A stretch of 64,000 nucleotides of DNA, taken from sequence record NC_027395.1; one strand, written 5' to 3'. The position numbers and the translations under genes were made by a program. This DNA is from Escherichia phage vB_EcoP_SU10. The notes beneath the pieces are model-generated. The model saw only the letters and a list, made by a program, of their open reading frames with translations, ran no database searches and was not told where the DNA came from. Below are positions 32,419 through 32,694 of this stretch, one piece after another. Each line of letters starts with the position of its first letter. Position 1 is the stretch's first letter.

Positions 32419-32694
32419 TTACTTATTTCTCAGGGCTGTGTCCAAAAATGCTTTCAGGTTTGCTTCAGTCTGCATACCGGAGAGGCTGTAGTGTGCACCA
32501 CTGTTACGGTCAGGCACAACAAAAGCAGGGATGCTTCGTACACCATACTTAACAGCTTGTTCACGACCATCACCTACAAGGATGTTAATCTCTTCCACTT
32601 CTACATCAAACTCCTTAACAACCTTCTCAAAGGTAGGAGCCATTGCTTTACATGGAGCACACTGATCACTATAAAACTTAATTACTTTAGACAT
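32419..32694 (-). CDS. thioredoxin
   Basis: 91 aa with redox motif CAPC and thioredoxin-fold spacing. Confidence 0.8.
   Translation of the reverse strand: MSKVIKFYSDQCAPCKAMAPTFEKVVKEFDVEVEEINILVGDGREQAVKYGVRSIPAFVVPDRNSGAHYSLSGMQTEANLKAFLDTALRNK

Follow-up and report, generated by a model that had tools for sequence, protein, structure and literature searches.

A Minimal Phage-Encoded Thioredoxin of Kuravirus as a Candidate Redox Protein of a Nucleotide-Precursor Cassette

The thioredoxin encoded by a Kuravirus (a phiEco32-like prolate podophage) may well be a redox-active member of a nucleotide-precursor and redox cassette that supports dNTP supply, rather than a part of the replisome; from sequence comparison and structural modeling, we give this reading about an even chance. 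The gene's conserved neighbors are those for dCTP deaminase, Dps, and ribonucleotide reductase (RNR), not those for polymerase, exonuclease, or helicase. The first-pass annotation of this DNA had proposed a dedicated processivity subunit for the split polymerase. Comparative evidence speaks against that proposal: The segment on which the thioredoxin would dock is short and is conserved in phages without the thioredoxin, the neighbors are metabolic, the redox site is invariant, and the segment needs no partner to be modeled with confidence. Gene, annotation, and processivity idea have all been published before. New here are the mapping of a shortened form of the T7 thioredoxin-binding thumb insertion (TBD; 54 of ~77–80 residues), the independence of this element from the presence of the thioredoxin gene, and the placement of thioredoxin in a conserved cassette.

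A Conserved and Expressed Phage Gene

The window—the whole stretch of DNA analyzed, 64,000 nucleotides—shares 96–97% identity over an 18-kb piece with the Escherichia phages vB_EcoP_DE5, Bas90, and Bas91, and 57 records span at least 80% of the same piece. The thioredoxin ORF, whose protein begins MSKVIKFYSDQCAPCK, has an AAGGA Shine–Dalgarno-like motif 6 nt 5′ of its ATG. It matched 125 phage records by tblastn, and 43 diverse orthologs were aligned. In 72 phage records the protein is 95–99% identical over 91 aa, and its gene sits in the same slot between the Dps and ThyX genes. The phiEco32 copy (EU330206; 97.8% identical to the window gene) is labeled “thiol-disulfide isomerase and thioredoxin,” and orthologs in many relatives bear the label “thioredoxin domain.” Mass-spectrometry peptides cover 52.8% of the SU10 thioredoxin (CDS65; PMC4281155). 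The ORF is not due to chance: It is conserved, and the protein of its SU10 ortholog has been detected. Recent horizontal acquisition was ruled out, as the GC content of the gene matches that of its neighbors and the gene is conserved lineage-wide.

A Minimal Thioredoxin Fold With an Intact CxxC Motif

The first-pass annotation read this ORF as a phage-borne CAPC thioredoxin, and that reading is borne out by the ORF itself, its C12-A-P-C15 motif, a fold model, and Pfam PF00085 (E = 1.1e-13; 51.5 bits against a cut-off of 23.5). The Pfam match runs from profile position 22 to 102 of 103, so that the N-terminal β1/α1 is absent. The ORF belongs to PHROG 22 (“thioredoxin domain”) and matches NCBIfam equivalog models below their cut-offs (TIGR01068, 52.2 vs. 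96.8 bits; TrxA NF006898, 38.3 vs. 138 bits). In a profile search, the short (85–100 aa) phage thioredoxins form a monophyletic subfamily.

The AlphaFold2 model built on the 43-ortholog alignment (pLDDT 92; topology β-α-β-α-β-β-α) contains the core thioredoxin fold with CxxC, minus the β1/α1 of classical TrxA. Among solved structures, Foldseek ranks E. coli TrxA first (TM ~0.8, rmsd 1.9 Å, 28–29% identity), including chains from complexes with thioredoxin reductase and PAPS reductase; superposition on the 1T7P TrxA chain gives a TM score of 0.78. Invariant across the 43 orthologs (30–83% identity) are K6, C12, P14, C15, A47, R53, P56 (the cis-Pro), and G73. The position of the buried catalytic Asp26 in classical thioredoxins is an invariant Lys in the phage orthologs, that of Trp31 is Gln or variable, and Gly33 is replaced by Ala. 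R73, I75, P76, and G92 of TrxA correspond to R53, I55, P56, and G73 of the phage protein, and the TrxA K90 equivalent is Leu in Kuravirus. The gene product is a divergent, minimal, N-terminally truncated thioredoxin with an intact CxxC and cis-Pro, which sequence and model predict to be catalytically intact.

An NrdH or glutaredoxin identity was ruled out: The motif is CAPC, not C-V/M-Q-C or C-P-Y-C, and no glutaredoxin-family match is significant, the only related Pfam match being a marginal one to Glrx-like (DUF836; 17.4 bits against a cut-off of 26). A periplasmic DsbA- or TraF-like role was also rejected. The TraF Pfam match is marginal (24.2 vs. 23 bits), the common fold accounts for it, and residues 3–8 are modeled as the first β-strand, which leaves no space for an N-terminal signal peptide.

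A Cassette Shared With Nucleotide-Metabolism Genes

The neighbors of the thioredoxin gene all lie on the minus strand and are closely packed (Table 1, in order of transcription; several small ORFs stand between the ThyX and PhoH-like genes). The stop codon of the 59-aa membrane-protein gene is 8 nt before the thioredoxin start. At the other end, the ThyX gene begins 15 nt 3′ of the thioredoxin gene, in agreement with the earlier placement of thioredoxin beside ThyX. The accompanying statement that the window holds no RNR was upheld: Class I and class III RNR queries gave only chance matches in the window by tblastn, and the complete genome of the 97%-identical Bas90 carries no RNR annotation.

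Table 1. Features of the window discussed here, in order of transcription
Feature	Coordinates	Strand	Remarks
T7 gp4-like primase/helicase	37186..38976	minus	PHROG 239, 1e-175
3′-5′ exonuclease subunit (exo), split family A polymerase, 185 aa	36635..37192	minus	PHROG 38876/403; phmmer 5e-14 vs. T7 gp5 (N-terminal domain)
Nucleotidyltransferase	35263..36690	minus	
dCTP deaminase	34720..35253	minus	PHROG 1663, 2e-60
Three small paralogs	33901..34516	minus	
Protein X, conserved, 109 aa	33499..33828	minus	phrog_10984
Dps-type ferritin-like protein	32943..33554	minus	HW..H..D/E ferroxidase motif; Pfam Ferritin 5e-07; PHROG 3636; NCBIfam Dps below cut-off
Predicted membrane protein, 59 aa	32703..32882	minus	phrog_9296; between Dps and thioredoxin
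Thioredoxin, 91 aa	32419..32694	minus	ATG start; C12-A-P-C15, cis-Pro P56; N-terminally truncated minimal thioredoxin fold
ThyX, flavin-dependent thymidylate synthase, 218 aa	31747..32403	minus	Pfam Thy1 2.2e-43; PHROG 85
PhoH-like protein	29719..30456	minus	
Polymerase subunit (pol), T7-like family A, 614 aa	26156..28000	minus	
T7 TBD-like segment, pol residues 57–110	27671..27832	minus	Truncated TBD homolog
Extra helical thumb insertion, pol residues 135–225	27326..27598	minus	Not in T7; 14 Lys, 5 Arg, net +11

In every examined phage context, nucleotide-metabolism genes lie a few genes or less from the thioredoxin, and in most relatives the dCTP deaminase gene is directly 5′ of it. The metagenomic contig L086 reads exo, dCTP deaminase, thioredoxin, X, Dps, and NrdD, with NrdG farther on; GAP52 has the same order with a small ORF after exo. 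L096 runs from dCTP deaminase and thioredoxin through an 89-aa gene and an unannotated 69-aa gene in the Dps slot to NrdD and, at a distance, NrdG. In Privateer, NrdA and NrdB are followed at a distance by dCTP deaminase, thioredoxin, X, Dps, and an NrdD-like fragment. ThyX takes a more distant place in the remaining orders: L094 has dCTP deaminase, a 67-aa gene, thioredoxin, and a 106-aa gene in the X position before it; L093 has PhoH, thioredoxin, and an 88-aa gene in the X position; and 7-11 has dCTP deaminase, PhoH, thioredoxin, and X, then ThyX and Dps.

Homology of X was tested directly in L086, Privateer, 7-11, LAh_6, and L085, all of which carry orthologs (phmmer 1e-15 to 1e-18); the gene is called X by annotation only in GAP52 and by position in L093, L094, and L096. 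It is directly 5′ of the Dps gene in five examined lineages and adjoins the thioredoxin gene in 7-11, and Dps itself is beside or near the thioredoxin in relatives with this thioredoxin. LAh_6 and L085 keep X and Dps together with the thioredoxin slot empty. A different, 76-aa thioredoxin-like gene stands two genes 3′ of the class I RNR genes in LAh_6, and a glutaredoxin gene directly 5′ of NrdA–NrdB in L088; these redoxins are separate genes, different from the Kuravirus thioredoxin. The NrdD genes adjoining thioredoxin in relatives resemble the T4 type, whose turnover reductant is formate. The Kuravirus locus is a rearranged, RNR-less form of this cassette.

A Shortened TBD-Like Segment in the Split Polymerase

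The description of the replication enzyme as a T7-type split polymerase was confirmed, with the pol and exo genes 8.6 kb apart. Among solved structures, T7 gp5 comes closest to the pol subunit (phmmer 1e-32; Foldseek 5.5e-25, TM 0.57). Profile–sequence alignment with hhalign pairs pol 1–614 with gp5 203–704 (E = 6e-80), and in pol motif B (R443-D-N-A-K-T-F-I-Y451), Y451 equals T7 Y526.

A thioredoxin-binding insertion in the thumb, which the first-pass annotation had advised looking for, is present in part. Pol does carry an insertion at the TBD site, with a homologous docking strand, but the segment spans 54 residues against ~77–80 in T7 (hhalign partner gp5 259–338), about one-third of the T7 element being absent. 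The C-terminal strand is the sole confidently homologous part: Pol R91-E92-D-I-G-G-A-F98-T99-C-V101-E102-Y-V-D-F106-D-P-S109 aligns with T7 R318-E319-Y-V-A-G-A-P-Y326-T327-P-V329-E330-H-V-V-F334-N-P-S337. N-terminal to this docking strand, pol and gp5 align weakly and with gaps, and the segment has some 26 residues fewer in Kuravirus than in T7; the absent third falls in this less confidently aligned part, and pol has no full-length (~76-residue) TBD between thumb helices H and H1. The missing third presumably takes in part of the basic loops that are ordered upon thioredoxin binding. In molecular dynamics of the T7 complex, the main TBD–thioredoxin contacts are E319–K90, E330–R73, T327–I75, V329–R73, P325–A93, and Y265–I72 (PMC5984650). 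Four of these T7 positions are matched in pol: E92 = E319, T99 = T327, V101 = V329, and E102 = E330.

In the AlphaFold2 model of pol (pLDDT 93.8), residues 57–110 are modeled without a partner at block means of at least 90, as strand 59–66, helix 78–87, and strand 98–104. The extra helical insertion at residues 135–225 sits after the thumb's conserved F-D-P-S motif, and further insertions relative to T7 lie at about 320–368 and 391–420. A large thumb insertion at the same position in phiKMV-like PolAs has been suggested to help processivity. In Kuravirus, we infer, the 135–225 insertion may be a built-in element for holding DNA. Kuravirus pol also resembles the split T7-like PolAs with a half-length TBD, on which host thioredoxins failed to dock in AlphaFold2 (PMC10201439).

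The Segment Does Not Follow the Thioredoxin Gene

The polymerase family comprises Kuravirus, Aeromonas Lahexavirus (50% identity), Privateer, 7-11, and GAP52 (46–48%), and 106 Pseudomonas phage records (~39%), mostly LUZ24-like Bruynoghevirus. None of the 125 records matched by the thioredoxin in tblastn comes from Pseudomonas or Aeromonas. The complete LUZ24 genome shares the pol, exo, primase-helicase, and amidoligase cluster with Kuravirus and contains no thioredoxin, glutaredoxin, dCTP deaminase, ThyX, Dps, or RNR.

We split 93 polymerase homologs into a clade with an extra helical hairpin after motif A and all others; all examined contigs with this thioredoxin subfamily belong to the hairpin clade. 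P57, P69, F70, G74, G96, P97, F98, T/S99, V/I101, F106, D107, and K110 are equally conserved in both groups. Because this conservation is equal with and without a phage thioredoxin, the TBD-like element is, as judged from sequence comparison, a family-wide structural feature that does not depend on the phage thioredoxin. It may bind host thioredoxin in all members, or in none. E102, the T7 E330 equivalent, is Trp in most members of the hairpin (thioredoxin-bearing) clade. Charge-pair covariation between the docking strand and the thioredoxin (E92 with the K90 equivalent, E102 with R53) gave no signal, the independent lineages being too few. Querying IMG/VR with the polymerase alignment yielded mainly remote T7-like loci of marine origin, with a thioredoxin in the flanks of 1 of ~75, and was hardly informative for this family.

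Possible Roles of the Thioredoxin

If the thioredoxin serves dNTP supply, it would be made from a middle-gene operon together with dCTP deaminase, X, Dps, and ThyX, would probably be kept reduced by host thioredoxin reductase, and would hand electrons to disulfides of dNTP-making enzymes. The putative clients are phage NrdAB and NrdD/NrdG in the relatives and, in RNR-less Kuravirus, host NrdAB or NrdD or other host disulfide clients. Greater dNTP flux would result, followed by conversion of dCTP to dUMP to dTMP through the deaminase and ThyX.

Several lines of evidence are consistent with this role. In T7, the thioredoxin cysteines are dispensable for processivity, which is redox-independent (10.1101/2025.10.05.680603); since they are unneeded for binding of that kind, the invariance of the redox active site across the 43 orthologs points to selection for chemistry. 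Conservation of the cassette—dCTP deaminase, thioredoxin, X, Dps, and often NrdD—indicates nucleotide-precursor or redox metabolism. LUZ24, with the same pol, exo, and primase-helicase, has neither the nucleotide-metabolism genes nor the thioredoxin, and the redoxins of L088 and LAh_6 lie near class I RNR genes. The modeled fold superposes on TrxA, including TrxA bound to thioredoxin reductase and to PAPS reductase, and the Syn5 thioredoxin, which is redox-active and undocked on its polymerase, offers a supporting analogy.

Other observations count against dNTP supply. With RNR absent from Kuravirus, only a host enzyme could be the client, and E. coli already has TrxA and GrxA to serve RNR. 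The invariant Lys at the Asp26 position is atypical, Trp31 is not conserved, and since the score falls below the NCBIfam equivalog cut-off (52 vs. 96.8 bits), redox properties and reduction by host TrxB are predictions. The T4-type-like NrdD neighbors, with their presumed formate turnover, likewise weigh against it; Padovani and colleagues reportedly found in 2001 that E. coli thioredoxin is needed for class III RNR activation. That every Kuravirus keeps the thioredoxin despite the absent RNR would also fit an RNR-independent role.

A dedicated processivity subunit is, in our estimate, unlikely. The thioredoxin would bind 1:1 to the truncated TBD at the tip of the pol thumb, through its cis-Pro loop and active-site surface, stabilizing the thumb over the primer-template in a redox-independent manner and freeing the phage from host TrxA. 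Such a role is suggested by a polymerase that is the closest known relative of T7 gp5, with an insertion exactly at the TBD position and a docking strand that keeps the four T7 contacts listed above, and by a thioredoxin that keeps R53, I55, P56, and G73 in a model that fits the 1T7P TrxA chain. In the examined phages, moreover, the short thioredoxin always accompanies the long polymerase form or an interrupted copy of it, RNR or not, and it is retained in RNR-less Kuravirus. Against this, about one-third of the T7 TBD is missing, and what remains is equally conserved in the thioredoxin-less clade, LUZ24 having no thioredoxin gene. E102 is mostly Trp in the thioredoxin-bearing clade, and the K90 equivalent is Leu in Kuravirus. 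Residues 57–110 reach pLDDT >90 with no partner, the thumb has a strongly basic 90-aa helical insertion of its own, and CxxC is invariant, though unneeded for T7-type binding. Host thioredoxins did not dock on half-TBD PolAs (PMC10201439), nor did the Syn5 thioredoxin on its polymerase, and the thioredoxin gene is never beside pol or exo to the exclusion of metabolic genes. Literature searches returned no biochemical evidence for a Kuravirus polymerase–thioredoxin complex and nothing on host trxA dependence of Kuravirus. Nothing specifically demands the polymerase-subunit model and several comparisons oppose it, so we hold it as a minority view; a three-gene holoenzyme of pol, exo, and thioredoxin, with the thioredoxin docked on the retained C-terminal strand of the shortened TBD, is a candidate that we consider quite unlikely. 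Were a polymerase-subunit role true, it would extend the T7 gp5–TrxA model to a phage-encoded partner and be the first instance of a thioredoxin clamp that comes from the phage itself. Relatives without the gene, LUZ24 for example, would then use the same strand to recruit host thioredoxin, and a minimal thioredoxin-docking strand would be defined, useful for engineering processive polymerases.

Less probable still is a redox partnership with the X–Dps pair or with ThyX chemistry. Here, the thioredoxin would act in iron and peroxide handling, protecting replicating DNA rather than feeding RNR, with the NADPH-oxidase side reaction of ThyX as one source of peroxide. The contiguity, or near contiguity, of thioredoxin, X, and Dps in Kuravirus, Privateer, GAP52, and L086 is in keeping with such a partnership, as is the preservation of the block of Dps, the 59-aa gene, thioredoxin, and ThyX in Kuravirus, which lacks RNR. 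This link is purely positional, however, and X and Dps occur together in LAh_6 and L085 with no thioredoxin in the slot. No peroxiredoxin was found among the scanned window ORFs, and we know of no Dps that requires a thioredoxin.

Comparison With Known Systems

The thioredoxin genes of phiEco32 (EU330206), SU10 (CDS65), and Bas90 (Bas90_0062) are the same gene as that of the window, an isolate of the same genus, with no material difference. The SU10 paper listed thioredoxin among the genes common to all five sequenced C3 phages (PMC4281155).

With E. coli TrxA, which T7 DNA polymerase borrows from the host as its processivity factor (PDB 1T7P), the phage protein shares the fold core, CxPC, the R-x-I-P cis-Pro loop, and the G92 equivalent. 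It differs in being phage-encoded, in its length and motif (91 aa and CAPC, against 109 aa and CGPC), in lacking β1/α1, and in the exchanges Asp26 to Lys, Trp31 to Gln, Gly74 to Ser, and Lys90 to Leu; its polymerase binding is hypothetical. The polymerase resembles T7 gp5 in the motif B Tyr, in an insertion at the same thumb site, and in the homologous C-terminal TBD strand. Unlike gp5, the Kuravirus enzyme is encoded in two genes and has a 54-residue TBD-like segment and extra insertions.

Syn5 likewise combines a phage-encoded thioredoxin with a T7-like polymerase, and the same two hypotheses, RNR reductant and processivity factor, have been weighed for it, in the sole experimental study of a phage thioredoxin alongside a T7-like polymerase (10.1101/2025.10.05.680603). 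There, the thioredoxin showed redox activity and the deletion mutant a replication defect; in AlphaFold3, the protein failed to dock at the thioredoxin-binding site of the polymerase, and the authors prefer RNR activation. Syn5 differs from Kuravirus in having its own RNR and experimental data, whereas the Kuravirus thioredoxin is known from sequence, models, and SU10 proteomics.

Privateer, a relative among the C3 podophages, has a polymerase of the same family, and its thioredoxin (QIN94863) is an ortholog of the window's, with ~44% identity over the N-terminal 59 residues by tblastn and 38% over the whole alignment. The Privateer paper (Corban and colleagues, 2021) put forward, as a proposal only, that this thioredoxin pairs with the T7-like polymerase for processivity and pointed to its conservation in every C3 phage examined there (PMC7881722); earlier remarks on phage-encoded thioredoxins are comparable (e.g., PMC3821669). 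Privateer has NrdA, NrdB, and an NrdD-like fragment around its thioredoxin gene, whereas in Kuravirus the thioredoxin is kept without any RNR.

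Polymerase Insertions and Interruptions

The polymerase subunit carries three insertions absent from T7 gp5, at residues 135–225, ~320–368, and 391–420. The first forms a helical addition to the thumb; one of the other two, a helical hairpin that follows motif A, is confined to a clade of roughly 570–618-aa polymerases. All examined thioredoxin-bearing contigs fall in this hairpin-bearing clade.

In several relatives, the polymerase gene is re-interrupted or shortened (phage records H93, H95–H97, H103–H104, and H128; also P0029–P0032). In LAMP and KBNP1711 the match is broken into two parts, an endonuclease VII gene splits the LUZ24 polymerase, matches end at residue 564 in FH3, pEC-N1203-2Af.1, PAS59, and ECBP2, and metagenomes contain forms of 449–457 aa. 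These interrupted and shortened genes suggest recurrent insertion of homing endonucleases into the polymerase genes of this family.

Genes Around the Thioredoxin

Protein X, recognized by the motif HRDxLxR...W-S/G-NGKY, directly precedes the Dps-like gene in Kuravirus, Privateer, GAP52 (by annotation only), metagenomic contig L086, LAh_6, and its fellow relative L085. In Salmonella phage 7-11, X instead adjoins the thioredoxin gene, with Dps ~1.3 kb away from X. Because the pairing persists even where the slot holds no thioredoxin, we suggest that X and Dps form a putative, uncharacterized functional pair.

Features of the window and corresponding loci in relatives
Feature	Location	Strand	Description
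Helical thumb insertion	27326..27598	-	Polymerase residues 135–225; strongly basic, net +11
GC-rich hairpin	32908..32936	-	CGCCCTGTCTCCTAACCCGAGGTGGGGCG
Dps-like gene	32943..33554	-	Directly downstream of X
Protein X	33499..33828	-	phrog_10984; conserved, ~90–110 aa
Three tandem paralogous small genes	33901..34110, 34110..34319, 34319..34516	all -	All phrog_4939
Amidoligase-type cluster	39196..48780	-	Counterpart in LUZ24 (L092), 7377-13075
X–Dps loci, relatives	L003 (Privateer) 9275-10023; L086 2861-3579; L089 15660-16483; L085 5026-5776; L097 11264-11982		
NrdD-like fragment, Privateer	L003 10034-10330		~98 aa, close to Dps gene

A strong hairpin with an 11-bp stem sits in the small intergenic space that follows the Dps stop codon and precedes the 59-aa ORF. 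This element may be a terminator, attenuator, or RNA-processing site that sets Dps apart from the 59-aa ORF, thioredoxin, and ThyX genes. Terminator-like sites are no more numerous across the region than chance would give. The dCTP deaminase gene and X flank the three small paralogs, which encode proteins of 65–69 aa, each with a C terminus of the form ...KV(H/I/Y)YY.

Comparison with Related Phages

Kuravirus and LUZ24-like phages share a cluster encoding gamma-glutamyl cyclotransferase, a RimK-type ATP-grasp ligase, glutamine amidotransferase, an amidoligase, and a COOH-NH2 ligase, a gene content suggesting that the products make a gamma-glutamyl-type peptide or a modification.

Near Dps, both Privateer and 7-11 encode a short NrdD-like fragment (phmmer match of 1e-18 in 7-11): a remnant, or else a glycyl-radical "spare part" domain that stands on its own. 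Where these two phages retain only this ~98-aa fragment, GAP52, L086, and another relative, L096, carry full-length NrdD.
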